Shown here in pieces: positions 23,594 through 49,913 of a stretch of 64,000 nt of DNA. The notes under the pieces were generated by a model. The model had not been told where the DNA came from. It saw only the letters and a program-made list of their open reading frames with translations, and did not search any database. Both the position numbers and the translations under genes were made by a program. How positions within the stretch are numbered: the first letter of the stretch is position 1; the number at the start of each line of letters is the position of its first letter. Source of the DNA: an uncultured bacterium (GTDB lineage Bacteria > Oederibacteriota > PGYV01 > CAWJRG01); contig CAWJRG010000010.1 of the NCBI GenBank assembly GCA_963845185.1, forward strand, positions 224,001 through 288,000, read 5' to 3'.

Positions 23594-23689
23594 AGATATC
23601 GTTTGTTTTGTCAAGCTTCTCAGCGCAGACAAAACATTACGATATTTTATACCCGCTCAAGTCACGAGCTTGCAAGTGACAAGAGGTAT
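23594..23689 (-). repeat. Double-hairpin leader element, copy A
   Basis: ATACC-TCTT-GTCAC..GTGAC-TTGAGCGGGTAT, then AATATCGT-AA-TGTTTTGTC..GACAAAACA-A-ACGATAT. Confidence 0.85.
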
Positions 23690-24504
23690 TAAATGTCTTT
23701 TGTTAATTTATTATTTATCCATGAGTAGATGTCACCAAATACCTGTTTTCTGTTCTTCTCTATTGTCAGCGCGTGGAAGGAATCCTTGTATAAGTGATAT
23801 TCCTTGTCGCATTTAAGCTTATTGAATAATTTCAGGGAAGAGGAGTTTTTTCCCAGGTAATCTTTCCCGGCAAGCAGAAACAGAACCGGTATTTTTATTT
23901 TCGCCGTGTTTAGCATTGCTTTTATCTGGATTAAAAGTATGCCAAGTAAAAGCCCTGCCGAGGCAAACCTGTGTTCGCGCTTGTCACTTTTCAGCCTTTT
24001 TAATATGGAAACATCCCTCGACAGTTCCTCGGACTTAAAAGGCATTAGAATTGGTTTTGCCGGAATAAACAAGGCAGTAAAACCTATCAAAATCTTTTTC
24101 ATCAGGCTGATTTTCATTGAATCCTCATAAACCGGTACAACCTCAATAAGACCTTTGTAATTGCTGTCGCAATCAAGCACGGTCATATGTGCTATGAGGG
24201 CGCCCATGCTTTCGCCAATGATAAAAATTGGTTTTTTGGAATTTTCCGACTTTATTATTTCCTTCAGGATGGCTATGTCCTTATAATAAATATTGATTGC
24301 TTCCACATATCCCGGCCTTTGAGAAAGTTCGCCAAACCCGCGCAATGCAAGTGCGTAAACTGAAATTCTCTTTGTCTTAAAAAAATTTCCCATTTCAGCA
24401 AACCTTTCAGAATGTGCGCCCATGCCGTGCACAGCAAGAATAACTGCTTTCGAATTTTTCGTCTGCCACTTTCTATAGTATATCCCGTTTTTATTTATAA
24501 GCAT
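23689..24504 (-). CDS. Alpha/beta hydrolase (lysophospholipase/monoglyceride lipase family)
   Basis: VHGMGAH, LRGFG, GESMG nucleophile elbow, catalytic His in SFHAL. Confidence 0.9.
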   Translation of the reverse strand: MLINKNGIYYRKWQTKNSKAVILAVHGMGAHSERFAEMGNFFKTKRISVYALALRGFGELSQRPGYVEAINIYYKDIAILKEIIKSENSKKPIFIIGESMGALIAHMTVLDCDSNYKGLIEVVPVYEDSMKISLMKKILIGFTALFIPAKPILMPFKSEELSRDVSILKRLKSDKREHRFASAGLLLGILLIQIKAMLNTAKIKIPVLFLLAGKDYLGKNSSSLKLFNKLKCDKEYHLYKDSFHALTIEKNRKQVFGDIYSWINNKLTKDI

Positions 24505-24518
24505 GCATGCCCCGCATT

Positions 24519-25076
24519 TTACTTTTTTTGCCCGTTTTCGGCAGAAAGCATTTCAACAAGGCGTTTTGTTTCTTCTTCAGTTATATACCTATCTGAAGGC
24601 GAGCGCAGTATAGTTTTGTTTTTCATGCTTACTGCCCTTCCGAACGAAAGTGCCATATCGTATACTGATTCTGCCTGTGGAAGGAAACTTACAAATACTG
24701 GCACATCCGGTTTTGACATGTACCACCTGCCGGCGTTGCTAAAATAAAGGCTCGTAGTTATAACGCCAAGCCTTGCCTGCTTTTTCCTGTCATTGTCTGT
24801 TTGCCCTGCGGCGATTTCAAGAAACTTTTTGCACAGCGCGAAAAATTCGTTTTTTATCTTTTCGTTAAGGACTATTGCATAATCGCCCATGACGTCTTCA
24901 AAGTACATGTAGGTTGTTTTGCTTCGTACGTCGTACTTTAATGTACTTTTTTTATCTACCATTTGACGGCTGGAATCCAAATATTCCTGTACTTTAATTT
25001 CGCCGATAGGCATTTGTCCTGCATAAACAAATATGGAAGTCAGGAAAAGGAAAATGATAAATAATATTCTTTTCAT
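24519..25076 (-). CDS. Hypothetical exported protein
   Basis: Signal peptide; upstream TTGACA-N17-TAATAT at 25181-25209. Confidence 0.65.
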   Translation of the reverse strand: MKRILFIIFLFLTSIFVYAGQMPIGEIKVQEYLDSSRQMVDKKSTLKYDVRSKTTYMYFEDVMGDYAIVLNEKIKNEFFALCKKFLEIAAGQTDNDRKKQARLGVITTSLYFSNAGRWYMSKPDVPVFVSFLPQAESVYDMALSFGRAVSMKNKTILRSPSDRYITEEETKRLVEMLSAENGQKK

Positions 25077-25258
25077 TTTTTACCCGGACATGCGTCAATA
25101 TAGGTATTATTCATAAAACCACACCTCTTAAAAAAGTCTTTGACTCCGGTCCACCGGCGCCTTTTTTGATGACAAATCATATATTAACATTAAATAAAAC
25201 AGGTGTCAAACAATCCGTAAAATTCGATCCCTTCTTCGAAAATGGCGGCTTATATCGT

Positions 25259-26059
25259 TCACTTTTCCGCAGTACCTTTAAAGAAAGTATAACAAAAAAC
25301 CCCGCCTTTTCTTGCCGATTTACTTAAATCTCTTATCCCTTTATTCCATGTTTTTTTATCAATCATCCCGCAGGCAATAGCCTGTTTTTCCACTCCTTTT
25401 ACCATAGCTATATATGTTTTTTTTGTAAACCCTTCGGTCATTTTCGGCCTGCTCTCGTCTGCATAAACAAATCTTGGCGAAATATTTATATTATTAAACC
25501 CTGCTTTTTTCAGCAAAGGATAAAGGCGCCTGCCGATAAGGGAATCCCCTCCCAGCTTTTTCTGAATATCAATCAAACAGCGTATTGTTTTCATAGCGTC
25601 CTTGCTTTCAGGGTAAAAAAGCGATGTTTCATGATCCCCTTCTATAACGGTTAATGTGCCTTCTTTTTTTAAGACTTTTTTTAAATTCTTCAAAGCCTTA
25701 ATTGGCTCACGCAAATGCTCAAGCACAAAACAGACAAAAACATGGTCAAAGGTATTGTCTTCAAAAGGCAGGTCAAAAATATCAGCTATCCTGAATTCTA
25801 CATTATTTATTCTTGATTTTTTTATTAGAGAGCGTGCTTTATCCAGCGATTCCGAAGAAATATCCATGGATATTATCAGGGCTCCCGGGCTGTTTTTGGC
25901 GAGTATTACTGTCTGCGCACCGACACCGCATCCTGCTTCAAGCACTTTGCTGCCTTTTGGGTAATGCGTATCGCCGTGCAAAAGTCCAGTAAGAGTATTA
26001 GCCTGGTCAAACAATCGTGTATGTTCTCTCTTTGTATAACCATGTACATAATTCCGCAT
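25259..26059 (-). CDS. Class I SAM-dependent methyltransferase
   Basis: VLEAGCGVG, LPFEDNTFDHVFVCFVLEHL. Confidence 0.92.
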   Translation of the reverse strand: MRNYVHGYTKREHTRLFDQANTLTGLLHGDTHYPKGSKVLEAGCGVGAQTVILAKNSPGALIISMDISSESLDKARSLIKKSRINNVEFRIADIFDLPFEDNTFDHVFVCFVLEHLREPIKALKNLKKVLKKEGTLTVIEGDHETSLFYPESKDAMKTIRCLIDIQKKLGGDSLIGRRLYPLLKKAGFNNINISPRFVYADESRPKMTEGFTKKTYIAMVKGVEKQAIACGMIDKKTWNKGIRDLSKSARKGGVFCYTFFKGTAEK

Positions 26060-26098
26060 ATCATGATCCTTTAAATACAGGGCATACTATATATTTTG

Positions 26099-26590
26099 TC
26101 AGGCCTTGTTTAAATAAATATCTTTAATTCTGTTATGCTCTATCCAGGTCAATAAAATCATTACTGTATCAAAAACAGTAAGGGCAATCAGCCAAAAAGA
26201 ATGGGTATATGAATACCGGTATATCTGATAGCCGACGAATAAAACGAGAAAAATAACCGCAAGTGGATAAGCCCATAGCCTTTTTTCCAGCAGCATGGCA
26301 ACAAGAAATATTTTAACCACACCGTGGGACAACAGGTAAAAAATTCCAAAATGCTGTGAACTGGCTGTAAATTCATGGCTTATTTTTATTAAATAATTAG
26401 CGATCATATCATTCGGGTCTTCAGATAATTCATGCTGGGTCAATAGAAGAATTATTTTGCTTAACCTGACCGGGCTGGTCAGCATAAGCAAAAAACCGCC
26501 CAAAATCTCAAGGATTCCGTCAAAGCCTTTTATATAAATTCCGATTAAAAATCCGTCATGAAGCAAATTCTTTTTAATATCCGTTTTCAT
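26099..26590 (-). CDS. DUF2127-family membrane protein
   Basis: KGFDGILE, HELSEDPND, YLLSHG, WAYP; start either 26590 or 26605. Confidence 0.85.
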   Translation of the reverse strand: MKTDIKKNLLHDGFLIGIYIKGFDGILEILGGFLLMLTSPVRLSKIILLLTQHELSEDPNDMIANYLIKISHEFTASSQHFGIFYLLSHGVVKIFLVAMLLEKRLWAYPLAVIFLVLFVGYQIYRYSYTHSFWLIALTVFDTVMILLTWIEHNRIKDIYLNKA

Positions 26591-26613
26591 ATAATAGTTT
26601 ATCACCAGCCTTT

Positions 26614-26732
26614 TATGGAGCCCCCGCCTTCACAGGCGGGGCACCTTTAAAAATTTTCTGATATGCTCCCTCCCCGGAGCGCTATCAATCCTGCCTCAAC
26701 AATAGGCGGGGTTTTTCGCGAAGCGGGATTCA
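26614..26732. mobile_element. Small palindrome-pair element resembling a non-autonomous IS200/IS605 derivative
   Basis: Two related GC-rich hairpins (CCCCGCCT-TCAC-AGGCGGGG and CCTGCCT-CAACAAT-AGGCGGG) ~50 nt apart; no transposase. Confidence 0.5.
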
Positions 26733-26777
26733 TATTATCAGGCAATAAATACAAAAAATCAAGCGTTGAAACCGAAC

Positions 26778-26805
26778 TTGACAATTTTAAACACAGGAAT
26801 ATAAT
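26778..26805 (+). promoter_or_regulatory. Consensus sigma-70 promoter
   Basis: TTGACA-N16-TATAAT. Confidence 0.8.
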
Positions 26806-26819
26806 TGGGGTAATATTGA

Positions 26820-26917
26820 GTACCACTTGTCCTCAGCCTGGCGGCTTCGGACTGGAGCGGGTACAAGATAGCGTAATATTTTATCATCGCTTTCGGCTTG
26901 ATAAAATAAACGCTATC
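26820..26917 (+). repeat. Double-hairpin leader element, copy B
   Basis: GTACC-ACTT-GTCC..GGAC-TGGAGCGGGTAC, then GATAGCG-TAA-TATTTTATCA..TGATAAAATA-AA-CGCTATC, followed by AGGAGG. Confidence 0.85.
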
Positions 26918-26932
26918 ATAGGAGGTGATTGC

Positions 26933-27472
26933 ATGAGAAAAAATACAGTCGCAATTCTCGCTGTTTTGCTCTTTTTAACGCTTATCTTTACAGGAGGAAA
27001 AAAGAAAATGGAAAAAATTATCGTAACAAGCAGCGCATTTAAGCAGGGCGAAGCCATCCCGGTAAAATATACATGCAAAGGCGCTGATGTTTCGCCGGAA
27101 ATCAGCTGGCTGGGCACACCCCAAAACACGAAATCAATTGTTTTGATTGCCGATGACCCTGATGCGCCGGGCGGCATGTGGGTTCACTGGGTGGTTTATA
27201 ACATCCCATCATTGGTCACTTCACTTAATGAGAACTTTCCAAAAACCGTTGAGTTAAAGGATGGCACGAAACAAGGCCGTACTGATTTCGGCAAATATGG
27301 ATACGGTGGCCCGTGTCCGCCGTCAGGCACACACAGGTATTTTTTCAAGGTCTACGCGCTTGACATTGTTTTAAGCCTCGAACCTGCGGCTGCGACCAAG
27401 ATGTCGGTAACAAAATCAACGGAAGGACACGTGCTTGGCTATGGTGAACTGATGGGAACTTTTAAAAAATAA
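26933..27472 (+). CDS. YbhB/YbcL (PEBP) family protein
   Basis: DDPDAP, WVHW, GYGGPCPP, HRYFFKVYALD; start moved to the ATG after AGGAGG. Confidence 0.93.
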   Translation: MRKNTVAILAVLLFLTLIFTGGKKKMEKIIVTSSAFKQGEAIPVKYTCKGADVSPEISWLGTPQNTKSIVLIADDPDAPGGMWVHWVVYNIPSLVTSLNENFPKTVELKDGTKQGRTDFGKYGYGGPCPPSGTHRYFFKVYALDIVLSLEPAAATKMSVTKSTEGHVLGYGELMGTFKK

Positions 27473-27498
27473 TTTCAACCAATAAAATCGACAGCAAT

Positions 27499-28755
27499 TC
27501 ATTTTTTAAATTTCTTATTAATATTGCCGTTGCTGTCTGTTTTTATCAGATATACATCCCAACCGCCTGCGCGATATGACTCGGTATACCCGGTGATGAT
27601 ATATCCACCGTCTTTAGTCTGCTGCACCGACCTGCCTATATCATCTTTGCTTCCCCCGAAAGTTTTATGCCATTTCTGTTTTCCGTCGCTGTCTGTTTTT
27701 ACCAGATACACATCGGCATTACCCGCCCCGTATGAATGTGTGCTCCCCGCAACAATGTATCCCTCGTCGTTTGTCTGCTGCATCGAATAGCCTTCGTCGC
27801 TATTTTTTCCACCGTATGTCTTATACCAATTCTGGTTTCCATTGTTGTCTATTTTTATTAAACAAACATCATTATTGCCGGCCAAGCTTGAACTCGTGCT
27901 GCCTGCAACTATATATCCGTTGTCTGTTGTTTGTTGTACCGAATATCCATAACTATCCCCGCTTCCGCCCAAAGTCCTTGTCCACATGCCATCACCATTC
28001 CTGTCTGTCTTTATAAGATATATCTCATTATAACCCGGGCTGTAGGAATTTGTGGTCCCTGCAATGATGTACCCGCCGTCTCTTGTCTGCTGCACTGAAC
28101 GGCCTTCGTCACTTCCGCTTCCGCCGAATGTCCTTGTCCACACACAATCGCCGTTGCTGTCTGTCTTTATCAAATATATATCAACACCACCCGTGCCGAA
28201 TGAATTTGTGCTTCCTACAACAATATATCCGCCGTCTTTTGTCTGTTGTACTGAATATCCGTAATCATCGTTGTTACCGCCGAATGTCCTTGTCCATACG
28301 CAATCGCCGCTGCTGTCGGCCTTTATCAAATAAACATCCCAGCCGCCCGCACCGCACGCCTTCGTGCTTCCTGCAATAATGTATCCCCTGTCTTTTGTCT
28401 GTTGTATTGAATTTCCTTCATTTTCACCGTTTCCGCCGAATATTTTGTACCAGTTCTGGTTTCCGTTGCTGTCGGTTTTTATCAGGTATATTAGGGGATT
28501 AGCAGGCGTACTGTATGATGTCGTGTTTTCAGTAATGACATAACCGCCATCGGCTGTCTGCTGCACAGACTCGCCTTTATCATCGCCATCTCCTCCGAAT
28601 GTGGCTGCAAATTTGACGGCTGCATCCGAGACCTGCGTTTCGACGGCTTTTTGGGGAAAAACCAAGGAAGTCATTAAAAACATTATAATAACCAGGCAGG
28701 GCTTTACCGGGTTCATTTGTTCTTTGGCGTTGATTTTTTTATAATCGCGTATCAT
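27499..28755 (-). CDS. Exported beta-propeller repeat protein
   Basis: Seven ~50-aa repeats GxSVQQTxDGGYIxAG...YLIKTDSNG...WxxTFGG. Confidence 0.85.
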   Translation of the reverse strand: MIRDYKKINAKEQMNPVKPCLVIIMFLMTSLVFPQKAVETQVSDAAVKFAATFGGDGDDKGESVQQTADGGYVITENTTSYSTPANPLIYLIKTDSNGNQNWYKIFGGNGENEGNSIQQTKDRGYIIAGSTKACGAGGWDVYLIKADSSGDCVWTRTFGGNNDDYGYSVQQTKDGGYIVVGSTNSFGTGGVDIYLIKTDSNGDCVWTRTFGGSGSDEGRSVQQTRDGGYIIAGTTNSYSPGYNEIYLIKTDRNGDGMWTRTLGGSGDSYGYSVQQTTDNGYIVAGSTSSSLAGNNDVCLIKIDNNGNQNWYKTYGGKNSDEGYSMQQTNDEGYIVAGSTHSYGAGNADVYLVKTDSDGKQKWHKTFGGSKDDIGRSVQQTKDGGYIITGYTESYRAGGWDVYLIKTDSNGNINKKFKK

Positions 28756-29335
28756 TTATCAAAATCCTTTCTTGTGATTGCGTAGCTTTTTACATCATGC
28801 ACTCTTCCTCTGACCGTTATTATCCTGCTCCTCTGCATGCCTTCAAACTTCATTCCTGCTTTTTCCATAACTCTTGACGAGCCGATATTTTTAATATCAC
28901 ACACCGCCTCGATCCTGTTTAAACCCATTTTTTTAAATCCAAATTCTATTATTTTTTTACAGCTTCTGTCATATATCCTTTATTCCAACCGTCTGGTGAT
29001 AATGCATAGCCTATTCCCGCAGTTTTATGGGTGTCAGAATATGTTTCATATCCCGCTGTGCCTATCACTTTCCTGGATTTTTTATCAGTCACTGCCCAGG
29101 AAGCAGGCTCCCCGCGCTTGTATTTTGCCAAAACATGTTTAATAAATGCTTTAGTATCTTTTTTTGTCCTGTGATATTCCCATATTGTATATTTCGTCAC
29201 CATTGGCCGCGAAGCATAATTAAATATGTCGTCAATATCTGTTTTTATTATCCTGCGCAATAAAAGCCTTTTTGTTGATAATTCAGGCAGGTTTTTAAAA
29301 ACCCGCTTATTGGAATCCATCGTTTTCAATCCCAC
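28752..29335 (-). CDS. RimJ/RimL-family GNAT acetyltransferase, frameshifted in an A-run at 28952-28958
   Basis: Adding one A extends WNKGYMTEAVKK into IIEFGFKKMGLNRIEAVCDIKNIGSSRVMEKAGMKFEG, ending in an ATGA overlap with the next gene. Confidence 0.88.
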
Positions 29336-29895
29336 GCTATCTCATAACTCGTTTTACCATCTTTATTATCGGTAAATTTTATGATTTTTACCGACACATT
29401 TTTGCAGCCGCTTATTTCCAATGCCTTTTCTATCCACCCGCCTATGCGGTTTTCAATTACCGGTGATATTTCCGAAAACTCAAGTATTTCTACTTTAGTA
29501 CTTTTCGCCCCGGTCTGTGTAGCCCTTATTTCGCTGGGACGGTAATAGGTCGGGAGTATCCTGTCGGCCTTTTTTATTATGAACTGCGGATTCGCCAATT
29601 GCACAAAAAACCTGTAAATGCCTTTTAACCCGTAATCGGCGCTGTGCCTGCCCATTTCCCATGCGCCTTTTAAATCGCCGTTATAAAACATAGCGCACGC
29701 GCGTTTGGTCGGTTCCACAAGATATTCGTTCATTGAATACCAGTTGGCAGAAATGATGGCAGACGAAAAAACACTCTGCGCCTCTTCCGGCAGCGATGCG
29801 ACCCATTTCTTTAATCCTGTTTCTCCAAAATTTAGTTTTATGAATTCCCTGGCAGCCACAAGTGTGGAACCTTTTACATCCATAAATGCCTCCAT
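29326..29895 (-). CDS. Hypothetical protein (DUF2378/H-NOX-like architecture)
   Basis: VKGSTL...FGETGLKKW...WY...GWIEKALEISG pattern; family assignment tentative. Confidence 0.55.
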   Translation of the reverse strand: MEAFMDVKGSTLVAAREFIKLNFGETGLKKWVASLPEEAQSVFSSAIISANWYSMNEYLVEPTKRACAMFYNGDLKGAWEMGRHSADYGLKGIYRFFVQLANPQFIIKKADRILPTYYRPSEIRATQTGAKSTKVEILEFSEISPVIENRIGGWIEKALEISGCKNVSVKIIKFTDNKDGKTSYEIAWD

Positions 29896-30061
29896 TGTTT
29901 TTCAAAAAAATTTATTCGCGGTCATAATAACATTTATAATTATAAACGACAATAATATTTTTTTATGTGGTAGAATTCCCCTTGTAATTTCATAAAAGAC
30001 GTGCTGACTATATATTCATATCAAGACGCTCTTTCTTTAATGGCGTCTTCGGGAAAACCTC

Positions 30062-31549: not shown

Positions 31550-31740
31550 AAAATGCCTCTTTTCCTCCAAGCCTGGTATGCGTGGAAATATAACTAATAT
31601 AAGGTTATCCCCCAGAAACATATTAAACAAGGCTTGTTTCCACTTATAATTGACTTATATCCCGGTTGAATTTGTTGGATTTATATCAGGAATGGAAATT
31701 CGAAAAGCATTTTTCGCGGAATTGAAAACTAATAATTCCT

Positions 31741-33285: not shown

Positions 33286-33379
33286 GAAGCCTCCGCCTGA
33301 AATTAAAAACAATAACCAATTATTAGTATAACTCCTGTTTATGGGCCTGTCAATGATGAGCGCTGAATTATATTAACTC

Positions 33380-33443
33380 AAAAAAAAGAGGCAGGCCAAG
33401 GGAGTTGGAGGGGAATAAATGGGGGGGGTAAATGGCCTGCCCC
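33380..33443 (-). terminator. Hairpin with a large C-rich loop and U-tail, copy 1 (3' of the YHS gene)
   Basis: GGGGCAGGCC-[ATTTACCCCCCCCATTTATTCCCCTCCAACTCCCTT]-GGCCTGCCTC-T8. Confidence 0.7.
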
Positions 33444-33462
33444 AGGTGTTTCTACTCTATGT

Positions 33463-33948: not shown

Positions 33949-34068
33949 TTATTTCACCTCCTTTCATGTTATTCATTTGTTATTCACTTTATAGTTCATT
34001 TTACTTTACTTCTTTATTTGCGCATTCAACGAATCCGCTAACAATGTTGCGGAAATCTTTTTTATTTT

Positions 34069-35574: not shown

Positions 35575-35647
35575 GCCGAAATCCCTCCTTTAATATGCAG
35601 TTTTTAATTCATACCGTTTTGCAATTAAGTATGGCAATTATACTAAT

Positions 35648-38691: not shown

Positions 38692-38709
38692 TTTGCCCTC
38701 ATTTTTATA

Positions 38710-40092: not shown

Positions 40093-40126
40093 TTCAGGCC
40101 TGCCTTTCTTAAATTTATAATCTTGA

Positions 40127-41599: not shown

Positions 41600-41619
41600 T
41601 TACTATTTTATGCCTCTTG

Positions 41620-42018
41620 TCATTCTGCCTTATTCTCGCTGCTGCCGGGTTCCTGTTCCTGTGTCTCCTGTTTCGGCTGTTCCTGCGTTTCCTGCTTTGG
41701 CTCTTCCTTGTTTTCCTCGCCTGTTTCCGCTTCCTCTTCTTCTTTTTCCTCTTTCTTGAACTCCGCGGTTTTTTCCTCCCACTCATTTTCCTGCAGGATA
41801 ACAAGCGGCCTATCCGGATACATGGACATATCAAAATTTTCCATAGCAATATCCTGCGATCCGCAAGAAGCGCACTGGACTTCAATATCCACATCCCCGG
41901 AATCTTTCTGGCAGTAACGTGTCAGCACACCTGCGTTAAATTCCCACAGCTCAAGTGGTTTGTAATCAGTAACAACGCTTAAAAAGCCTTTGTCGTTTCC
42001 ACATTTTCTGCAAATCAT
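41620..42018 (-). CDS. Hypothetical Zn-ribbon protein with an acidic tail
   Basis: CRKC...CASC; GGAGGT SD; Glu-rich tail with EPKQETQEQ repeat. Confidence 0.75.
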   Translation of the reverse strand: MICRKCGNDKGFLSVVTDYKPLELWEFNAGVLTRYCQKDSGDVDIEVQCASCGSQDIAMENFDMSMYPDRPLVILQENEWEEKTAEFKKEEKEEEEAETGEENKEEPKQETQEQPKQETQEQEPGSSENKAE

Positions 42019-42029
42019 ATGCTACCTCC

Positions 42030-43490
42030 TTATATATTTGGCCTTTTTTTATGCCAATCAGTGTTTTGCTGGTAGATATTCGCGATGTCGAACATATCCT
42101 GCTCGCAAAAAGGCTTTCCCAGTATCTGCATTCCCACAGGCAAGCCTTTTTTGTCGAAACCGCACGGTATGGACAACCCTGGCAGTCCGGCAAGGTTTGG
42201 CGCTATGGTAAATATGTCGGATAAATACATTGTCATGGGATCCTCTGTCTTTTCTCCGACCTTAAAAGCCGTCGTAGGCGATACCGGAGTTATTATTATG
42301 TCAACTTTTTCAAATGTCTTGTCAAAATCTTTTTTTATCAACGTCCTCACCTTCTGTGCTTTTTTATAATATGCGTCGTAATAACCCGAAGAAAGCACAT
42401 ATGTACCAAGCATTATCCTTCTTTTTGTTTCCTTACCGAATCCTTTTTGCCTACTTTTCTTATACATATCAATCATATTGTCAGTCGTCGTGTCCCTGAG
42501 CCCGTATTGTACGCCGTCGAACCTGGCGAGGTTCGATGAAGCTTCGGCCGGCGCTATAATATAATAAACATCTATAGCGTAATCCGTGTGCGGCAAACTG
42601 ATTTTTTCTGTTTTTGCGCCGAGTTTCTCAAGCACCTTAACCGCGTCAATAATACTTACCTTGACTTCCGGCTGCATTCCCTCGATAAAATATTCTTCCG
42701 GAAGCCCTATAACCTTATTTTTTATGTCACTTTTTAAATTCTTATAATAATCCGCTACCTCAACAGGCGCCGATGTCGAATCACGGTTATCTTTCCCTGC
42801 TATATATTTCAGCAATACGGCGTTATCTCTCGCTGTTTTTGTAATCGGGCCTATCTGGTCAAGCGATGACGCGAACGCTATCAGGCCGTATCTAGATACC
42901 CTTCCGTATGTAGGCTTGAGCCCTGTTATTCCGCAAAGCCCGCTTGGCTGTTTTATCGAGCCCCCGGTATCCGAACCAAGCGCCGCTATGCACATGTCTG
43001 CAGCTACCACAGCTGCGGAACCACCACTTGAACCTCCTGGAACCCTTTCAATGTCCCACGGATTGCGCGTAGTAAAAAAAGCCGAGTTTTCTGTTGAAGA
43101 ACCGAATGCATATTCATCCATGTTTGTTTTTCCTATAAAAACCGCGCCTGCTTCCTGCAGCTTTTCAAGTACAGTAGCAGTATAAGGTGGCCTGTATCCC
43201 TCGAGCATTTTTGCCGAACAAGTGGTTGGATAGCCGTCAAGCACCATATTATCCTTTATTGCTATTGGTATGCCTGTAAGTTCCGTGACGTTTTGATTTT
43301 TTGATAATCTAGCCTCGGCAGCCTCAGCCGACTTATACGCAAGGTCTTCTGTCAAAGACACAAAGCCTTTTACCTTTGGATCAACCTGCTTTATCCTTTT
43401 ATAAACGCTGTCAAGGATATCTTTTGGCTTTATTTTCTTTTCTTTCAACTGCGTGCTCAGTTCCTCTATTGTCTGCTGGTACAGTTCCAT
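42030..43490 (-). CDS. gatA: Asp/Glu-tRNA amidotransferase subunit A
   Basis: GKTNMDE, PGGSSGGS, GSDTGGS, SSNLARFDG. Confidence 0.98.
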   Translation of the reverse strand: MELYQQTIEELSTQLKEKKIKPKDILDSVYKRIKQVDPKVKGFVSLTEDLAYKSAEAAEARLSKNQNVTELTGIPIAIKDNMVLDGYPTTCSAKMLEGYRPPYTATVLEKLQEAGAVFIGKTNMDEYAFGSSTENSAFFTTRNPWDIERVPGGSSGGSAAVVAADMCIAALGSDTGGSIKQPSGLCGITGLKPTYGRVSRYGLIAFASSLDQIGPITKTARDNAVLLKYIAGKDNRDSTSAPVEVADYYKNLKSDIKNKVIGLPEEYFIEGMQPEVKVSIIDAVKVLEKLGAKTEKISLPHTDYAIDVYYIIAPAEASSNLARFDGVQYGLRDTTTDNMIDMYKKSRQKGFGKETKRRIMLGTYVLSSGYYDAYYKKAQKVRTLIKKDFDKTFEKVDIIITPVSPTTAFKVGEKTEDPMTMYLSDIFTIAPNLAGLPGLSIPCGFDKKGLPVGMQILGKPFCEQDMFDIANIYQQNTDWHKKRPNI

Positions 43491-43544
43491 ACCCTTCCTC
43501 TTTTTTTTAACATTAAACTTTTAACTTTAAACATTAAACTGTTT

Positions 43545-43829
43545 TTAAATAATTTTCGGTACCTTAAACCCATTATTTTCTATCGAAGGCGCCGCGTCAA
43601 AAACTTTCTTTCTGTCAACTGTTTGCTTTATTTCATCTTCCCTATAAACATTTTTCATATCAATAGTGTAAAAAGTCGGCTCAATATTGTCCGTATCAAG
43701 CTTTTGAAGTTTATTAATATGTTCAAGAATATTCGAAAGCTGCTGCGCATATTTATCTTTTTCTTCCTCTGCTATCTCCAGCCGTGATAAATGCGCAATA
43801 TACTCAACGTCTTTCTTTGTTATTGCCAT
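43545..43829 (-). CDS. gatC: Asp/Glu-tRNA amidotransferase subunit C
   Basis: VEYIAHLSRL, RED, FKVPKII. Confidence 0.95.
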   Translation of the reverse strand: MAITKKDVEYIAHLSRLEIAEEEKDKYAQQLSNILEHINKLQKLDTDNIEPTFYTIDMKNVYREDEIKQTVDRKKVFDAAPSIENNGFKVPKII

Positions 43830-43840
43830 GTTTCACTCCT

Positions 43841-43939
43841 AAATATCGTTTGTTTTGTCAAGCTTCCAGCGCAGACAAAACATTACGAGATTTTGTACCC
43901 GCTCAAGTCCGAGGCCACTGGGCCGAGGACAAGTGGTGC
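43841..43939 (-). repeat. Double-hairpin leader element, copy C (upstream of gatC)
   Basis: GCACC-ACTT-GTCC..GGAC-TTGAGCGGGTAC, then AAATCTCGT-AA-TGTTTTGTC..GACAAAACA-A-ACGATATTT, then AGGAG. Confidence 0.85.
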
Positions 43940-44101
43940 TTTAAAAATGCAAATAAATAACTTACGCCCGTTTTTGCGGGGTACTTTTAAACTTATCTTT
44001 TTTACCTGTACAAAAGAATTTATCATAAAAAAATAAAGTATTCAAGGTCTATCTGGAGATTGGAGGTTGATTGTATCCCCAAAAAACCGAATTTTACTGA
44101 T

Positions 44102-45919
44102 TTATTCAGGCTTACTATTATTTTTTGCAGCATTTAAAAGCGTTTTTATTTCTGCGGTCTTTTTCTCGGATCTGGTCCATATATCCACTGCTTTTTTATA
44201 TTCCCCCATGTCATAATATATGTTGCCCAACAGATTGTAAAGCGCGCTGTAATTACCGTGCGCAGTTATAATTCTATTTAAGTATTCTATCGCTTGTTCC
44301 CTATTTTTATCCAAATACATTATCGCAAGCATCAAGCAGGCTTTTTCTGACGGATAATCTGTTGTAAAGTCCTTAAGCTCGCTGAAAGCCTTTTTAAAAT
44401 TAGCTTTGGTATAAAATTCAGAGTCATCTGCAGGTGTTAAATACTTAAAATATTTATCGATTTTTTGGGGGTTTACAAAAATAATAGCTTCATCGTCAAA
44501 ATATACAGCTTTATAATTAAGTCCGGATAACTTATCAATAACTGGTGCCCCATAGGAAAGTAAAAAACTGTTTATGTTGTTTTTTGCAATGAAATCCTTA
44601 TAATTCCCTTGCGTGTAATATATATTAGAATATTCCTGAATTACTGTAAACAGCGCGTTAAGCCTGCCGTTTACCATTATTTTATATTCCGGGAAAAGCA
44701 TATACTCAAAATATCCGCCCCATTCGTAATTTGAAAACAAATTTGGCGGTACTTTTGATTTCGTAATATATTTAAGCGCCTGCTCAGGATAAATACTTTT
44801 TGGAACTGCTGCTATTTTGAATGCCCCAAAAGCAAGCAGTAGCAAAGTCACGGCAATATAAATTTTATTGTTGAATGTAACAAGGTCTTTGTTTTCAGTC
44901 AACAAAACATCCTTCTTAATAGCCAAAAAGATATAATAGGATAAAATTGGCAAGGATGTTATTATAAACAAGGGTATGTTTTTCCTGACTGCTAGACCGG
45001 CTGTCAGGAATAAAAGGATTATAACGCCGTCCTTTAGAAATACCGCGTTTCTCCTTATATCTGAGTCTTTCAAGTTGCGAAAAAATACCAGTATAACCGT
45101 TGCCGAATAAATAAAAAAAACTGAAAAATATGCTGCGTTATCAATATTCGAAAAATCAAATCCAGTCTGCCATTCTTTTATATATTGTTTGATTCCGAAA
45201 TCCTGCATGAAAAAAATTAAACTTTTCGGGCCCTCGGGGCTTATAAACGATGCGAGTATTACGCCGGCAAGTGAAATCAGTAATATTCTAAAATCGTAGG
45301 ATTGTCTCTTTTCCTTTAACTTATATAAATTAACGCTGTAAAAAACACAATATATAAACATAACAATCGCGCCGATTATTTCTGTCGCGTGTATGTTCAC
45401 CCATAAAACAGCTGCAACAGGAAGCGAATAGTATAATATTTTATGGCTTTTTACCGGCTCATGCTCAAGTACATATATGAAATACAGAATGAATAAAAAA
45501 GTGAAAAACTGGGGCCTTAAAACCAGGAAAGGCGACAGCAAATATACGGCAAGAAGCCAAAAAGGCAGTACCGGCTCAAGGTATTTGGCCTGCTGCCTCA
45601 CTCGTATAACAAGAAAAAGCAGGCCAAAAAGTCCTGCTGCCATGAGTATTTTGAAATATAAAAGGTTGTTTATTCCAATAAAAATCGACAACAAATAAAT
45701 AATAACGTCAAAAAGCCATTCATGCGAATACCATTTTTGATTCGCAGCATAGGAAAAAGTATCATATTTCGGCAGGCCGTGAGCTTTTATTATTTCCCTG
45801 CCCGATGACATATGCCACCATGTGTCGCTGTCGAGAAAGTTGTTGTAAGAAATGGAAAAAAGGACAAATAAGGCGGCCAAAAGGAAAAAACCTTTTATTA
45901 GAGTGCTTTTTACGGCCAT
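44102..45919 (-). CDS. Polytopic membrane protein (GT-C-like) with C-terminal TPR
   Basis: DTWWHMSSGREI, SHEWL, LRPQ, LWVNIH, YEWGGY; many TM segments. Confidence 0.75.
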   Translation of the reverse strand: MAVKSTLIKGFFLLAALFVLFSISYNNFLDSDTWWHMSSGREIIKAHGLPKYDTFSYAANQKWYSHEWLFDVIIYLLSIFIGINNLLYFKILMAAGLFGLLFLVIRVRQQAKYLEPVLPFWLLAVYLLSPFLVLRPQFFTFLFILYFIYVLEHEPVKSHKILYYSLPVAAVLWVNIHATEIIGAIVMFIYCVFYSVNLYKLKEKRQSYDFRILLISLAGVILASFISPEGPKSLIFFMQDFGIKQYIKEWQTGFDFSNIDNAAYFSVFFIYSATVILVFFRNLKDSDIRRNAVFLKDGVIILLFLTAGLAVRKNIPLFIITSLPILSYYIFLAIKKDVLLTENKDLVTFNNKIYIAVTLLLLAFGAFKIAAVPKSIYPEQALKYITKSKVPPNLFSNYEWGGYFEYMLFPEYKIMVNGRLNALFTVIQEYSNIYYTQGNYKDFIAKNNINSFLLSYGAPVIDKLSGLNYKAVYFDDEAIIFVNPQKIDKYFKYLTPADDSEFYTKANFKKAFSELKDFTTDYPSEKACLMLAIMYLDKNREQAIEYLNRIITAHGNYSALYNLLGNIYYDMGEYKKAVDIWTRSEKKTAEIKTLLNAAKNNSKPE

Positions 45920-45920
45920 A

Positions 45921-46238
45921 TTAATCTTTTATTTTGATAAAAACCATTTTTACCGTGTCTTTTGTGTCGTTTGTTATACTGTGGTTTTCTTTTTTCTCCG
46001 CGGTGAACGCGTCGCCTGCTTTTACCCTGAATTCTTTCCCGCCTGCCATAAACTTAGGTGCCCCGGACACAAAATAAAAAAGCTCAATCTCGTCTTCATG
46101 CGAGTGCTCGTTTATGGCATCTCCGGGCTTTATATAAGCCACGCCAAGTGCATATTTTTCCGCGGTAAAAAGGTACTTCGAGCCAGACTGTTTTTCCTTA
46201 TTTTTAAACTCCACCTCATTGTCGTTTACATGTTTCAT
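45921..46238 (-). CDS. Cupin-domain protein
   Basis: EHSHEDEIELFYFVSG...GD...ENHSITN. Confidence 0.9.
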   Translation of the reverse strand: MKHVNDNEVEFKNKEKQSGSKYLFTAEKYALGVAYIKPGDAINEHSHEDEIELFYFVSGAPKFMAGGKEFRVKAGDAFTAEKKENHSITNDTKDTVKMVFIKIKD

Positions 46239-46248
46239 TTTTCCTCCT

Positions 46249-46344
46249 AAGTAAGAGTTTATTTTGTAAACCCGCAGAGTGAAGCAAAATATTACTCTTG
46301 CTTACACCCGCTCAAGTCCCGATTTTACGAGGGACAAGAGGTGT
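46249..46344 (-). repeat. Double-hairpin leader element, copy D (upstream of the cupin gene)
   Basis: ACACC-TCTT-GTCCC..GGGAC-TTGAGCGGGTGT, then AAGCAAGAGT-AA-TATTTTG..CAAAATA-A-ACTCTTACTT, then AGGAGG. Confidence 0.85.
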
Positions 46345-46345
46345 T

Positions 46346-46436
46346 AAAGTCCGTCGATTTTGCCGGGTGTAAAAACCAAAGCCAAAATCTTACGGAATCT
46401 TGCACCCGTTCTTGTCTCCATAAGGAGTAAGTGGTT
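46346..46436 (-). repeat. Diverged double-hairpin element, copy E, in tandem with copy D
   Basis: ACC-ACTT-ACTCC..GGAG..CGGGTGC, then TCCGT-AA-GATTTTG..CAAAATC-G-ACGGA. Confidence 0.6.
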
Positions 46437-46443
46437 TCTTTTA

Positions 46444-47892
46444 TCATTTTTTTTTCTTATATAAAATAATATCCTTTGTTTCGATTTGTTTGTCGTAAAA
46501 AGATCTGAACAATTGCGAAAATGCTTCTTCTTTTTCCTGCCGCGTAAGGACAAAAAAATCAGGCGGGTTATCCGCCATTTTCGCCCCAAACGTTTCCATG
46601 TCGTGCTGATAATACCCGAAAGCGTAAGCGTATACAAACCTGGAAGGCGCTTTAATGCCTGTCAGGAAATATATTTCAGGCTCGTTTGGCCATACAAACA
46701 AAGTGGTTTTGTCTGTTTTTCCCCTGTTTATTATTTCTGCCACGGCGCTGCTCTCATAAAACATTTCCTTGGTATATACACCGCTTTTATAAAATTCTAT
46801 CAATTTTAAATAATTGATGAAAAAAAATATATTAGCGATGAAAAAAACTGCTAATACCGTTAAAGCCGCCTTGTAATTAGTTTTTTTTGTAATCATTGTA
46901 TAAAAATCCCTGAACATTATTGCCGCAAGGATAGCAAGTGCAGGAATAAAAACCATGTAATAATGTGCGTATGTATCCTTAAGTATTCTTATTCCTATAT
47001 ACATTGTTATTACAGAGAAACAAATTAAAAAATTGACCCTGTCTTTTGGAGCTTTGAAAAGCTTGTATGCCGACCATAAAAAGGCCATAAGAAGCAACGC
47101 ATTCGAGTTTATTATTAACCTTAAAACCGCAAAAAGTTCGTCGTTGTTAGTTCCGGTTGCTTTTGCGCCTATATAAAAAAGGTTGTACATGATGTTACAG
47201 TCAATAAAATAATTCAATATACCGTTTTTTACGCACCATATTAATACCAGCAGGGTTATTGTCAGGAACCCAGCTGTGTACCATGCTGCGTAACTGATTA
47301 GGTCTTTTTTATTTTTATAGTAAAAAATAAGGTAAATAACCGGCGCCACAAACACGAATAAAACCATGGTTTTTATGTACACGGCTATGCCTATGAAAAT
47401 GCCTGAAATAAAAAAGTTGACATGCGCATATTTTTTTTCAATATCCGTTAAAAACAGCAATGATAAAATCAGGGGTATCTGCAGAAAAACCTCGGTATTG
47501 GCTGTTTCGCCCCCCATCATATAATTATTCTGGTATACCATGTATATAAGCGCTGCGAGCAGAGATAACCACCTACCGCTTATATGCCGCATAAAAATAA
47601 AAACAAGTATCATGGTTACAATGACGCATAAAGTTGTAAATGTCCTTATGGCATATACGGAAATCCCAAAAAAATCAAAAGCGGTTTTGTAAATATAATA
47701 AATAAAGGGCGGTTTCTGGTCAAAAGTGTCCTTATAGGGCAGTTCGTTATGGTATATGTGCTGCGCCATGTAGGCGTATGTGCCCTCATCCCTGTCAAGC
47801 GGCATGCCGGTAAACGGCACTCTTATGGCAGCCATAATTATTATTAACAGCAGCAGCATGCAGATTTCCAGTATGGTTATTTTCTTTTCCAT
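46444..47892 (-). CDS. GT39/ArnT-like (PMT_2) membrane glycosyltransferase
   Basis: RDEGTYAYMA, LPYKDTFDQKPP, ANTE; multiple TM segments. Confidence 0.85.
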   Translation of the reverse strand: MEKKITILEICMLLLLIIIMAAIRVPFTGMPLDRDEGTYAYMAQHIYHNELPYKDTFDQKPPFIYYIYKTAFDFFGISVYAIRTFTTLCVIVTMILVFIFMRHISGRWLSLLAALIYMVYQNNYMMGGETANTEVFLQIPLILSLLFLTDIEKKYAHVNFFISGIFIGIAVYIKTMVLFVFVAPVIYLIFYYKNKKDLISYAAWYTAGFLTITLLVLIWCVKNGILNYFIDCNIMYNLFYIGAKATGTNNDELFAVLRLIINSNALLLMAFLWSAYKLFKAPKDRVNFLICFSVITMYIGIRILKDTYAHYYMVFIPALAILAAIMFRDFYTMITKKTNYKAALTVLAVFFIANIFFFINYLKLIEFYKSGVYTKEMFYESSAVAEIINRGKTDKTTLFVWPNEPEIYFLTGIKAPSRFVYAYAFGYYQHDMETFGAKMADNPPDFFVLTRQEKEEAFSQLFRSFYDKQIETKDIILYKKKK

Positions 47893-49007
47893 CAGACTGC
47901 CGCTTTAATTATTTTCATTACTTTTTCTTTGTCCATTTCCACCGGGTTATAAGCCATTGAGCCTGTGTAAATTGTCTTTTCCATAATCTCCTGAATCTTT
48001 TCTTTGATATTTTTGTCTATGCCCGTTAATTTCAGCGGGATTCCCATTTTCCTGTTCAGGCTTCTTACACCTTTGATAATGTTAAACTCGAGTATCTTAT
48101 TCAATTTATTGAATTCTTTTCTGCGCTGCCTTGAGTTGAATTCAAGTACATGAGGCATAAGCACAGCGTTTACAAGGCCGTGCGGTACTTTAAGTACTGC
48201 TCCGATCGGGTGCCCAATACCATGTATCGCGCCCAATCCTGCGTTTGCGAAAGCCATGCCTGCTGTAAGGCTTGCCAAAAGCATATCATAGCGTGCTTTC
48301 CTGTTATTGCCGCTTTTATATGCTTTATAAATGCTCAGGAATACAGTCTCGATTGCCTTTACGGACAAGGCCCTTGTGCATTCGTTAGCCGATTTGGAAA
48401 AATACGACTCGGCTGCGTGGCTTAAGGCATCCATGCCGCTGTATGCTGTTATTTTTGGCGGCATTGTGAGGGTCAATTCGGGGTCAGCTATAACAGCGTC
48501 TGATATCAGCGAATCTCCCCTTAAGCTTATTTTAATGCCTTTTAATGTATAAGTCAAAACCGCATTTTTGGTTGTTTCTGAACCCGAGCCCGCGGTTGTT
48601 GGTATGGCTATAAAATAGGCGCCTTTCTGAATTACCTTTGCCTTCTCGTCAAGAAAATCCTTTACGCTTAAATTGTGCCTGAATATGCCTGCCGCGGCTT
48701 TTGCGCAGTCAAGCGCGCTGCCGCCGCCCATGCCTATTATGCAGTCTATATTGTTTTGCCTGGCATAAGAAGCGCAGTAATCAACCGTTTCCACTGAAAC
48801 TTCAGGCTCAACCCTGTCAAATATAAATATTTTTTTTTGCAGGCCGTTTAATATATTTAAGACGCTGTTTAAAACCCCTGATTTTTTTGCTGAATTTTTG
48901 CCTGTAACGACAAGGATATTCTCCCCTTTTACCAGCCCGCCCAGTTTTCCCATGCTGCCGTACCCAAAAAATATCTTCGGAGGGAAAACCATGCTGAATT
49001 CCTTCAT
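47892..49007 (-). CDS. Iron-containing alcohol dehydrogenase
   Basis: GGGSALD, IPTTAGSGSE, DALSH, HGIGH, PHG; start at MKEFS overlaps the upstream stop (ATGA). Confidence 0.93.
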   Translation of the reverse strand: MKEFSMVFPPKIFFGYGSMGKLGGLVKGENILVVTGKNSAKKSGVLNSVLNILNGLQKKIFIFDRVEPEVSVETVDYCASYARQNNIDCIIGMGGGSALDCAKAAAGIFRHNLSVKDFLDEKAKVIQKGAYFIAIPTTAGSGSETTKNAVLTYTLKGIKISLRGDSLISDAVIADPELTLTMPPKITAYSGMDALSHAAESYFSKSANECTRALSVKAIETVFLSIYKAYKSGNNRKARYDMLLASLTAGMAFANAGLGAIHGIGHPIGAVLKVPHGLVNAVLMPHVLEFNSRQRRKEFNKLNKILEFNIIKGVRSLNRKMGIPLKLTGIDKNIKEKIQEIMEKTIYTGSMAYNPVEMDKEKVMKIIKAAV

Positions 49008-49801
49008 ATAATAACTGCCCCGCCGTAACCAACAACCTGGCTGTAATCCCCGCTCGCATCCCCGGAATTCATATATCTGATTATCCTTCCTTCTTTTGCT
49101 CCAAGGAGTTTGCACGCATGCAGAAGTACAAAAGTAGGCATCCATCCGCACATTGATATGTCATGTTCCTGAACAGCCTCGACCAGGGCGTTTTCGTCCA
49201 TTTTCTCTATGGCAGAAAGTACAAAAGAATCTTTTGTATGCGCTGTTTTTGAATCCTCATAATGGGTCAGGTCGGTTGACGAAATAAGCAGCACATCCCT
49301 GTCTTTAATGCTTTCGCTTATCGCCCTTGCTGTTTCTTTCAGGTGCTCTATATTGTAATCCCTGAATATGATTGGAACAAAGGTAAAATTTTTCTTGATT
49401 TCCTGCAAAAAGGGCAGCTGCACTTCAATTGAATGCTCCCTTATATGCGCCGAAGTGTCCTTTAGCGCGTTATCTGAATTTTTTAATATGTCGTTTGCCA
49501 GCGGCTGGTTTATTTTGACATCGCCGAGCGGCGTCCTCCATACTCCTTCGTTCATGATTGAAATCGCCGGCCCCATGCCCGTATGGTTCGGCCCCATTAT
49601 TATTGCTATGTCCGGTATGTTTATTGACGAATACACTTCGCCCGCCACTTTCCCGGAATAAATATATCCTGCGTGTGGCACGACAATACCTTTAACGTCG
49701 AGCTTTTTTTCTTTTTCTACGATGTATTTATTGACATGCTTTTTCAGGGCATAAGCATCTGCCTCGTAAAACATTCCTGCGACAGCAGGGTCCCTTAGCA
49801 T
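49004..49801 (-). CDS. amrB: AmmeMemoRadiSam system protein B (MEMO1 family)
   Basis: RDPAVAGMFY, PHAGYIYSG, GPNHTG, EHSIEVQLPFLQ, STDLTHY, SMCG, VVGY. Confidence 0.93.
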   Translation of the reverse strand: MLRDPAVAGMFYEADAYALKKHVNKYIVEKEKKLDVKGIVVPHAGYIYSGKVAGEVYSSINIPDIAIIMGPNHTGMGPAISIMNEGVWRTPLGDVKINQPLANDILKNSDNALKDTSAHIREHSIEVQLPFLQEIKKNFTFVPIIFRDYNIEHLKETARAISESIKDRDVLLISSTDLTHYEDSKTAHTKDSFVLSAIEKMDENALVEAVQEHDISMCGWMPTFVLLHACKLLGAKEGRIIRYMNSGDASGDYSQVVGYGGAVII

Positions 49802-49813
49802 TTTAAACTCCTT

Positions 49814-49913
49814 ACGATAGCTTTTGTTTTGTCCAGCCGAAGGCGCCGGCAAAACATTACGCTATCTTGTACCCGCTCCAGTCCGAAGCCTACAGGCCGA
49901 GGACAAGCGGTGC
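49814..49913 (-). repeat. Double-hairpin leader element, copy F (upstream of the MEMO1 gene)
   Basis: GCACC-GCTT-GTCC..GGAC-TGGAGCGGGTAC, then GATAGC..GTTTTG..CAAAAC..GCTATC, then AAGGAG. Confidence 0.85.

Follow-up and report, generated by a model that had tools for sequence, protein, structure and literature searches.

Six copies of a two-hairpin element in the window

The stretch of DNA analysed here (64,000 nt, hereafter the window) corresponds to positions 224,001 to 288,000 of contig C10 (CAWJRG010000010.1) of an uncultured bacterium from the GTDB lineage Oederibacteriota (assembly GCA_963845185.1). The genome of 3.50 Mb, in 11 contigs, is 99.4% complete, and the organism is the sole member of its own family and genus among the genomes compared. 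The window contains six copies of a structured element of about 97-100 nt, formed by two consecutive hairpins, of which four end directly at a Shine-Dalgarno (SD) sequence. The element was originally predicted from the sequence of the window alone. All six predicted copies are present, at the expected coordinates and on the expected strands, and an nhmmer profile trained on 122 copies from this genome finds these six and no others in the window. The limits given below were refined from two unoccupied sites within the same genome, with a precision of 1-2 nt, and the scores were obtained with a covariance model of the element (R1), used with a cut-off of E ≤ 1e-3.

23592-23688, minus strand: copy 1; R1 score 101.6 bits
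26778-26805, plus strand: sigma-70-like promoter, TTGACA-16-TATAAT, 12/12 consensus positions, ending 15 nt upstream of copy 2
26821-26920, plus strand: copy 2; R1 score 97 bits; the sole plus-strand copy
43840-43938, minus strand: copy 3; R1 score 96.9 bits
46248-46343, minus strand: copy 4; R1 score 96.4 bits; second unit of a tandem pair
46344-46436, minus strand: copy 5; R1 score 65.5 bits; diverged first unit of the tandem pair, with a partial nhmmer match and a folding z-score of -2.2
49812-49912, minus strand: copy 6; R1 score 95 bits
49948-49976, minus strand: sigma-70-like promoter, TTGACA-17-TAAAAT, 11/12 consensus positions, upstream of copy 6

The six copies align over ~97-100 nt with a mean column identity of 71-76%. 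Copy 2 is flanked by the promoter at 26778-26805 and by the GGAGG (26921-26925) of a PEBP/YbhB-like gene with its ATG at 26933, and copy 6 has an equivalent position between the promoter at 49976-49948 and the GGAG (49811-49808) of a Memo-like gene (ATG at 49801), so that the two copies said to sit just past sigma-70 promoters do so. Copy 3 is located directly 5' of the GGAG (43839-43836) of gatC (ATG at 43829), and copy 4 directly 5' of the GGAGG (46247-46243) of a cupin gene (ATG at 46238). The AGGAG motif was found 0-2 nt beyond the originally predicted ends in four copies, and Pfam searches identified the downstream products as PEBP/YbhB-like, GatC, cupin and Memo, which are unrelated proteins, as had been noted. 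Copy 5 begins 8 nt past the TGA stop codon of a PMT_2 glycosyltransferase gene (46444-47892). Copy 1 starts 1 nt past the TAA stop codon of an alpha/beta-hydrolase gene (23689-24504). With GATTTTT as its 3' flank it has no adjoining SD sequence, and is therefore a 3'-untranslated or intergenic copy.

Fold and strand of the element

A double hairpin with compensatory changes in its stems is supported by RNAalifold, by the covariance-model alignment and by folding of single copies. For the six window copies RNAalifold gives 31 base pairs, 12 of which show compensatory change. The R1 alignment comprises 53 matches, 47 from this genome and 6 from relatives, corresponding to 51 distinct sequences. 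In this alignment, which was fitted to the model structure and favours it for that reason, 95.6% of the cells pair and 19 of the 29 pairs are changed on both sides; pairing falls to 35-49%, a large gap, when the partners are slid by 1-3 columns. None of 500 shuffled alignments matches the real one on any of five pairing measures, and the z-scores for folding of single copies range from -2.2 to -5.4. The two-hairpin fold is far beyond what is expected by chance.

Each unit consists of Y-ACC, hairpin 1, a linker, hairpin 2 and three further nucleotides. Several unpaired nucleotides are highly conserved (GTAA, TTTT and CGGGT), with the predicted GTAA motif invariant across the six window copies, and one U-G pair of hairpin 1 is kept in 48 of the 51 sequences. 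In a long variant, represented by 14 copies, hairpin 2 is extended at its apex by two extra conserved hairpins. By basal-stem sequence the copies can be sorted into discrete subfamilies (GCTATC, TCTTGC, GAAATC, GGACTC and GATATC), of which at least two, GAAATC and GGACTC, are dominated by a single 3'-terminal trinucleotide, a pattern that fits amplification from a few source copies. Hairpin 2 contains a TTGACA sequence, which in the consensus has no -10 box at the proper spacing, and a promoter within the unit was rejected on this ground.

The functional strand had been left uncertain in the original prediction. Folding does not choose between the two strands, which fold about equally well, with similar energies, and the wobble counts besides the conserved U-G pair (25 G-U versus 22 A-C) are uninformative. 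The context, in contrast, favours the transcribed strand, because the element is sense to the genes in this genome and, in a sister family (f10, described below), is preceded by a -10 box of its own. The motif was also said to be unrecognised, and a search of the whole window against Rfam 15 gave no match at the gathering score. At E ≤ 10 over positions 23400-50100 the sole Rfam match is AfaR (22.8 bits, 29127-29226), unrelated to the element and outside every copy, and nothing relevant was found in Rfam searches of the relatives' loci.

Placement and orientation in the genome

The genome contains at least 146 R1 matches at the cut-off, out of 150 candidates scored, while the nhmmer profile gives 190 matches, 127 of them near full length. 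Tandem arrays exist, the largest with six units (C9:916577-917176). We considered a copy as SD-adjacent if an SD core lies no more than 9 nt after its 3' end, followed by a start codon and an open reading frame (ORF) of at least 30 aa. This applies to 92 of 151 3' ends, compared with 203 of 20,000 random intergenic positions and orientations (1.0%). After the remaining 3' ends come an SD core only (7), another tandem unit (11) or something else (41).

The copies were predicted to point with the downstream gene, and 114 of the 127 full copies genome-wide are indeed on the same strand as that gene. One hundred of the 127 lie on the majority strand, which is about how the genes themselves are distributed, leaving no extra replication-strand bias. 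Since 24 of the 27 minority-strand copies are also co-oriented with their downstream gene, the orientation rule follows transcription and not replication. The 5' end of the element is unanchored: an upstream stop codon is found within 3 nt in only 3 of 113 copies and is more than 100 nt away in 75, and an anchoring at the upstream stop codon, as in MIRU repeats, was rejected. There is a mild enrichment of -10 boxes ending 5-9 nt upstream of the element (19 in 113 copies, versus about 8 per 5-nt bin elsewhere), and at one further site (C9:213k) the promoter ends ~11 nt upstream. This mild excess, together with promoters that end 15 nt and ~11 nt upstream, indicates that some copies are at the very 5' end of their transcript.

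No common theme links the downstream genes. Pfam hits were obtained for 16 of the 22 encoded proteins scanned, and include Mur ligase, FGGY kinase, OmpA, SDR, DAP decarboxylase, GH5 cellulase, ABC ATPase, beta-CASP nuclease, radical SAM and PhoU.

Filled and empty sites

Two clean comparisons of filled and empty sites were obtained within the genome. In the first, the element at C9:213412-213510 stands between TATAAT...TAGAA and GGAGGTTAAAAAGAATG, whereas the paralogous promoter-SD regions at C9:361k and C9:772k read TAGAA-A-GGAGGTT... without interruption. The second is provided by another dispersed repeat, family B, three members of which carry the element between ...CTCCGG and GGAGGGAGC, whereas seven aligned members are contiguous at the insertion point. 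One empty member is found in the window, and serves as the unoccupied reference site:

26616-26691, minus strand: empty member of family B, from the alignment of the family

In both comparisons the inserted sequence is a clean block that extends from Y-ACC to the basal stem plus 3 nt, with no target duplication, and the base right after it is the first G of GGAGG. Inspection of the family B alignment by eye shows that its GGAGG has no start codon at SD distance, so the placement looks like targeting of a DNA sequence rather than selection for translation. In addition, four pairs of paralogues, with the element in one member only, resume homology at (W)AAGGAGG, and uncommon SD variants such as GGGGAGGTT or GGGGGTT are common to element-bearing and element-free paralogues. 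For these two reasons the SD sequence can be assigned to the host gene and not to the element.

A genome-wide search for target duplication, covering all offsets and k = 2-5, yielded at best a matching trinucleotide in 12 of 85 copies, versus 6.0 expected. This is a weak signal, and with no duplication at the two filled/empty sites, target-site duplication was rejected as a rule. In a profile of 104 copies the two ends of the element, Y-ACCGCTTG... and ...AAACGNNNNC-WWR, show no inverted-repeat relation, as judged from the profile and not from a dedicated search for terminal repeats. Among the readings offered originally, a REP/MITE-like element targeting ribosome-binding sites (RBS) is the best supported, by the clean insertions 5' of GGAGG, the SD adjacency and the gene-wise orientation. 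The element nonetheless lacks the defining features of miniature inverted-repeat transposable elements (MITEs), of REP/RAYT repeats, of IS110 derivatives, of MIRU and of attC sites. One DNA sequencing run (share 0.07) yielded six short contig pieces, with no joints and none bridging the two-hairpin element.

Family B itself is a dispersed repeat of ~90-150 nt with a CCCCGCC...GGCGGGG hairpin and an internal GGAGGGAGC, and has no match in Rfam. It is present in the window at 26616-26736 (both strands), in the divergent region between a DUF2127 gene and the PEBP gene, and in at least eight other places of the genome, for example C9:28481-28573 and C10:331669-331751.

Distribution in relatives and the sister family f10

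The R1 model finds matches in 10 of 23 genomes of the same order, with 1-15 in each, compared with 146 in this genome, and none in 17 genomes from other orders of the phylum. A scan for the exact core pattern in one genome per species, across 185,579 species and with the source genome excluded by design, gave 11 stretches in three genomes. One of these belongs to the candidate division FCPU426, a name that the text of PMC7031533 equates with Candidatus Goldbacteria.

The gatC site provides an orthologous comparison. The element is present in none of the 22 gatCA loci of relatives that were scanned, and the gatC upstream regions recovered from relatives carry a conserved promoter and leader instead; the element was gained at this site in the present lineage. 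It is also absent from 15 metagenome loci found through the Fe-ADH protein, at identities of up to 37%. Separately, a conserved TGGCAY-N5-TTGCT motif was observed 5-20 nt before the gatC SD in almost every relative (loci L061-L084); it resembles a sigma-54 -24/-12 promoter and is preceded by a sigma-70-like promoter, CTTGAAA...TGATAAATT. This genome retains TGATAAATT (window 43940-44040) and does not have the TGGCAC-TTGC motif.

In family f10 (genome G014 and its kin) the same two-hairpin core is found in a different setting, according to features that were read by eye and flanking ORFs that were called with a simple ORF caller. The core comes directly after a -10-like box, with junctions TTATTATAT-ATACC or ACTATTATATT-ATCCC, and some subgroups share ~45 nt of sequence further upstream. 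On its 3' side are an A-run and a GC-rich inverted repeat, which on the opposite strand read as the terminator of the neighbouring gene, so that the unit abuts the end of the terminator T-run. In 10 of 11 G014 loci the unit is antisense to both flanking ORFs. As far as can be judged from these sequence features, the f10 module is a stand-alone unit with its own putative promoter, situated next to terminators. Two properties are shared by both lineages: the 3' end of the element meets an A-rich stretch and then GG (AAAAAGGCC... in f10, WAAGGAGG here), and the element is on the transcribed strand. Four f10 genomes have a unit in the radC-TPR intergenic region (L031, L032 and L034, and L037, with the TPR side alone conserved); this unit was rejected as an ancestral gene shared with the present genome, where the orthologous site holds a terminator only.

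Two further observations concern the hairpins of the relatives. In the f10 copies (L086-L093, L108-L117) the 3' side of hairpin 2 is nearly always GCTCCTCAAAGC, a CUCCUC stretch complementary to the SD sequence and located partly in an internal loop, which could be an anti-SD seed of a trans-acting small RNA. The copies of the present genome have no CUCCUC at that place, and often have CCUC twice in hairpin 1. In G003 and G021 hairpin 2 is found alone, with its GTAAT...AAAC loop kept (L035:1501-1631, L036:1501-1594) and with two in tandem in L035, and the two hairpins may be separable modules.

Search for a mobilising enzyme

The original prediction had proposed to look for a linked HUH/RAYT or IS110 enzyme, and neither link is supported. 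No match to Y1_Tnp (PF01797, Y1/HUH, RAYT) is present in this 99.4%-complete genome, while the domain is found in 14 of the 23 same-order relatives. Across 24 genomes, including this one, the element and Y1_Tnp show no association (both present in 6, only the element in 5, only Y1 in 9 and neither in 4). Five of six Y1 loci tested have no element-like flank. Right after the stop codon of a Y1 gene in G021 there is a degenerate look-alike of the element, which is weak (18.1 bits, E 0.01) and is a lead at most. The Y1_Tnp-domain ORFs of the order have ~325-345 aa, with up to eight matches per genome (G001, G014, G019, G021, G013 and others), roughly twice the length of the classical IS200 TnpA.

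The genome has seven DEDD_Tnp_IS110 matches, and a 1288-bp insertion sequence (IS) of the IS110 family is present in four near-identical copies (C1:323041, C5:335702, C9:330368 and C10:445859; L056-L059). Its ends are unrelated to the element and its target is a different, pyrimidine-rich one; R1 gave no match on two of the IS110 loci. Three of the four copies are inserted after a pyrimidine-rich repeat, CACCCTCACCCT...CTCCC, which suggests that the IS targets another small repeat family.

A group II intron of 1.93 kb (Rfam RF02005 and RF00029, with a reverse transcriptase (RT) ORF) is also present, in six copies that are 99.3-99.8% identical:

C9:700695, C9:811636, C9:845477, C10:383780, C10:832145, C11:62007: group II intron copies (loci L102-L107)

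Each copy lies just after a GGAGG-N(4-6)-ATGA, the SD sequence and start codon of a different gene, and the 3' end of the intron carries AGGAGG-N8-ATG. From its insertion sites the intron seems to home to translation starts, for which it may provide a substitute. The two-hairpin element is itself present in the 5' exon at C11, and likewise in that of a further intron fragment, C1:269912. Comparison of the intron with the element by covariance model gave 13.9 bits (E 0.09), with no common sequence or structure.

Origin and function of the element

We consider that the element is probably a lineage-restricted (FCPU426/Goldbacteria), non-autonomous mobile module of ~97-100 nt, which is co-transcribed as a leader. 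Insertion would occur in a single orientation, with the 3' end of the module abutting a purine motif (in this genome the (W)A-GGAGG that is the SD sequence), and would involve neither terminal inverted repeats nor target duplication. Because this target is asymmetric and on the sense strand, every copy would be co-oriented and co-transcribed with its gene, becoming the last ~100 nt of the 5' leader or of the intercistronic spacer. As the two hairpins are self-contained, they would leave the SD free and not block translation, which probably explains why ~150 copies are tolerated. Recognition of the folded single strand and of the A-rich/GG target may be due to a trans-acting enzyme, perhaps lost. 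A function of the RNA is plausible, and a modest advantage may come from it as well, for instance protection of the mRNA by a 5' hairpin or insulation of the SD from upstream sequence, which could explain the conservation of the core after insertion.

The predicted accessibility of the SD is consistent with this proposal. In folding models of 71 copies, the mean unpaired probability of the SD core is 0.50 with the native element and 0.32 with a shuffled element (Wilcoxon p = 3.5e-8), and it is 0.43 in 90 element-free genes with the same upstream length, which is not significantly different from 0.50. The SD is predicted to stay as accessible as in ordinary genes, so the module appears self-contained and does not have the look of an OFF switch. 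A cis-regulatory or stabilising role of the RNA, as originally suggested, is possible, and where a copy sits at the 5' end of the transcript its terminal hairpin could protect the mRNA.

Several results weigh against a mobile module of this type. Only two independent empty-site cases were obtained from 127 copies searched, about a quarter of the 3' ends (41 of 151) are away from any SD, and the search for a mobilising enzyme gave none: Y1_Tnp is absent here and does not track the element among relatives, and neither the IS110 element nor the group II intron has any sequence in common with the two-hairpin element. Identity of 100% is confined to tandem or segmental duplicates, and since there are no identical dispersed copies, the activity is not recent; the mean pairwise identity of dispersed copies is 67%, with nearest neighbours mostly at 80-95%. 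The core is also more conserved than expected for old insertions left to neutral decay. In 109 distinct copies, 19 of 96 columns are at least 98% identical, and singleton changes within subfamilies affect 0-1% of the core compared with 5-14% of the apices. Differences between nearest neighbours are likewise lower in the core (7.9%) than elsewhere (12.9%; odds ratio 0.58, p = 9e-6), with the core columns defined from the relatives. This excess could reflect selection on each copy, through a host or RNA function, or diversity of source copies that were not sampled. The conserved core and the -10 boxes of the sister family are at least as compatible with a host RNA function as with a purely selfish element, and perhaps more so.

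The element might accordingly be a host cis-acting RNA leader, with a protein, an ion or a second messenger as its binding partner, that controls translation or stability of a large and diverse set of genes, with mobility as a secondary feature and with the stand-alone sister copies, perhaps also the tandem arrays here, acting in trans as small RNAs or decoys in a Csr-like manner. The conserved unpaired nucleotides and U-G pair, the depletion of core changes after insertion and the six-unit tandem array at C9 all speak for such an RNA, as do the f10 copies, which with their -10-like box, hairpin and antisense position resemble independent transcription units, and the long variant, since structured RNAs often gain hairpins at an apex in this way. 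It is a live rival that we nevertheless regard as unlikely, because the downstream genes share no function, the SD is not sequestered, there is no known partner protein or ligand, and the basal stems form discrete subfamilies instead of varying freely; moreover, repeats that are otherwise identical carry the clean insertions, in one case at a GGAGG without a start codon at SD distance, and none of the 22 orthologous gatC leaders has the element. A related proposal, which we hold to be quite improbable, is a portable RNA domain with its own function: a multi-copy small-RNA gene family in sister FCPU426 lineages, planted before more than 100 SDs in this genome through SD-guided insertion, so that one trans factor (a protein or the ribosome) would read the shared two-hairpin handle on ~3-4% of the mRNAs, with free and tandem copies as decoys. 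The outcome would be a genome-wide post-transcriptional regulon of which a mobile element was the builder.

Other routes of mobility differ in the enzyme that they call for. A relic of a single-strand DNA transposon, of the IS200/IS605-PATE or REP/RAYT kind, would have lost its Y1 transposase; its top strand would be antisense to the gene, its target CCTCC(TT) 5' of the element, and the two hairpins would be its left and right ends. A hairpin near each end, the lack of terminal inverted repeats and duplication, the oriented insertion beside a short motif, the many Y1_Tnp genes of the order, the weak look-alike in G021 and the age of the copies, which fits a lost enzyme, are in its favour. Yet the genome with by far the most copies has no Y1_Tnp, the element and Y1 are not associated among the 24 genomes, and five of six tested Y1 loci lack an element-like flank. 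In IS608 insertion shows a replication-strand bias, whereas the strand of the element tracks that of the genes with no such extra bias, and the hairpin feet are 1-3 nt from the ends, unlike those of IS608; such a relic is thus a doubtful candidate. Spread through an RNA intermediate, resembling that of short interspersed nuclear elements (SINEs), would have a small-RNA gene of the f10 type copied next to SDs by the RT of the group II intron. The element is always on the transcribed strand, with its own -10 box in f10 and without terminal repeats or duplication, and six near-identical introns sit just past GGAGG-N-ATGA, but intron and element have neither sequence nor structure in common, the element stands 5' of GGAGG whereas the intron follows this motif at 9-10 nt, young intron copies contrast with old element copies, and no 3' tail or other mark of retroposition is seen. 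We know of no bacterial precedent for such spread, and consider it very unlikely. An attC-like integron site or a self-cleaving ribozyme, suggested by imperfect hairpins with conserved bulged bases and by a uniform orientation relative to genes, is hardly credible: the near-full copies (126 counted) are dispersed over 8 contigs without an array, a count that did not include a search for an intI/integrase gene, no ribozyme or other Rfam family matches even at E ≤ 10, and the sister-family copies are promoter-to-terminator units.

If the element is a mobile leader module that targets the SD, as we favour, it would have a site-specific insertion mechanism of a new type that reads GGAGG, and a mobile element may be able to join many mRNAs without blocking their translation. 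The module would then be a natural 'insulating leader', which folds on itself and leaves the RBS free, and if its RNA is functional, the element would place many unrelated genes under a single post-transcriptional input. Recognising the family is also important for the annotation of FCPU426/Goldbacteria genomes, where it would otherwise be missed or miscalled.

Comparison with known systems

Small structured repeats that join mRNAs are already known, such as REP, BOX, ERIC, Correia, MIRU and REP2. Those of the BOX, ERIC/IRU and Correia types are non-coding and can alter the stability or processing of the mRNA; Correia elements and other MITEs have terminal inverted repeats and a duplication of TA or of another target, whereas the element has neither terminal inverted repeats nor target-site duplication. 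To our knowledge, no BOX/ERIC/Correia-type repeat sits systematically at the SD in sense orientation, and we know of no other repeat that inserts without duplication and sense-oriented directly before the SD of ~100 genes, nor of one that has free-standing promoter-to-terminator relatives in a sister family. A search of full-text literature likewise found no intergenic repeat placed systematically at the SD in sense orientation.

The PATEs of the IS200/IS605 group and the REP/BIME repeats mobilised by RAYT (Y1 HUH enzymes) have no terminal inverted repeats or duplication, a hairpin near each end, and an oriented insertion beside a short motif. The element resembles them in its subterminal hairpins, in the absence of inverted repeats and duplication and in its oriented insertion by a short motif. 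It differs in having no cognate Y1 and no replication-strand bias beyond the orientation of the genes, and in being far longer and more elaborate than REP. As in riboswitches and T-boxes, a conserved structured domain precedes the SD in one lineage and a terminator-like hairpin in the other; in contrast to these, the domain described here precedes unrelated genes, leaves the SD exposed and is itself inserted as a mobile block, and the f10 units are antisense to their neighbours instead of leading into them.

According to the passages on mycobacterial interspersed repetitive units (MIRU) in PMC3184786, these are repeats of 40-100 bp in the intercistronic gaps of operons, transcribed with the operon, with 4-nt direct repeats at filled sites and with small ORFs that overlap the neighbouring stop and start codons at their ends. 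The element is also small, intercistronic and co-transcribed, but is inserted without duplication, and its 5' end is not tied to a stop codon, only the 3' end being anchored, at the SD. In the main texts retrieved on REP2, on SD-linked repeats and on Goldbacteria/FCPU426, including that of PMC7031533, the two-hairpin family is not described.

The nearest described analogues are REP2 of Neisseria and IR-A/IR-B of Borrelia plasmids, as presented in the corresponding parts of PMC3184786, and the distinction made here is by description and not by sequence comparison. These repeats, like the element, have no terminal inverted repeats, contain two internal stem-loops and are found immediately upstream of unrelated genes at the RBS. 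REP2 is described as having 120-150 bp and ~26 copies that contain a promoter, an RBS and an ATG, and in the same account its mechanism of spread is likewise given as unknown (Delihas 2011, PMC3184786). The element, in contrast, has ~100 nt and at least 146 copies, and ends 0-1 nt before a GGAGG that is owned by the host. It brings no promoter for the downstream gene, the promoters being upstream of the unit and the SD and start codon being shared with element-free paralogues, and its homologues in the sister family are stand-alone units at terminators.

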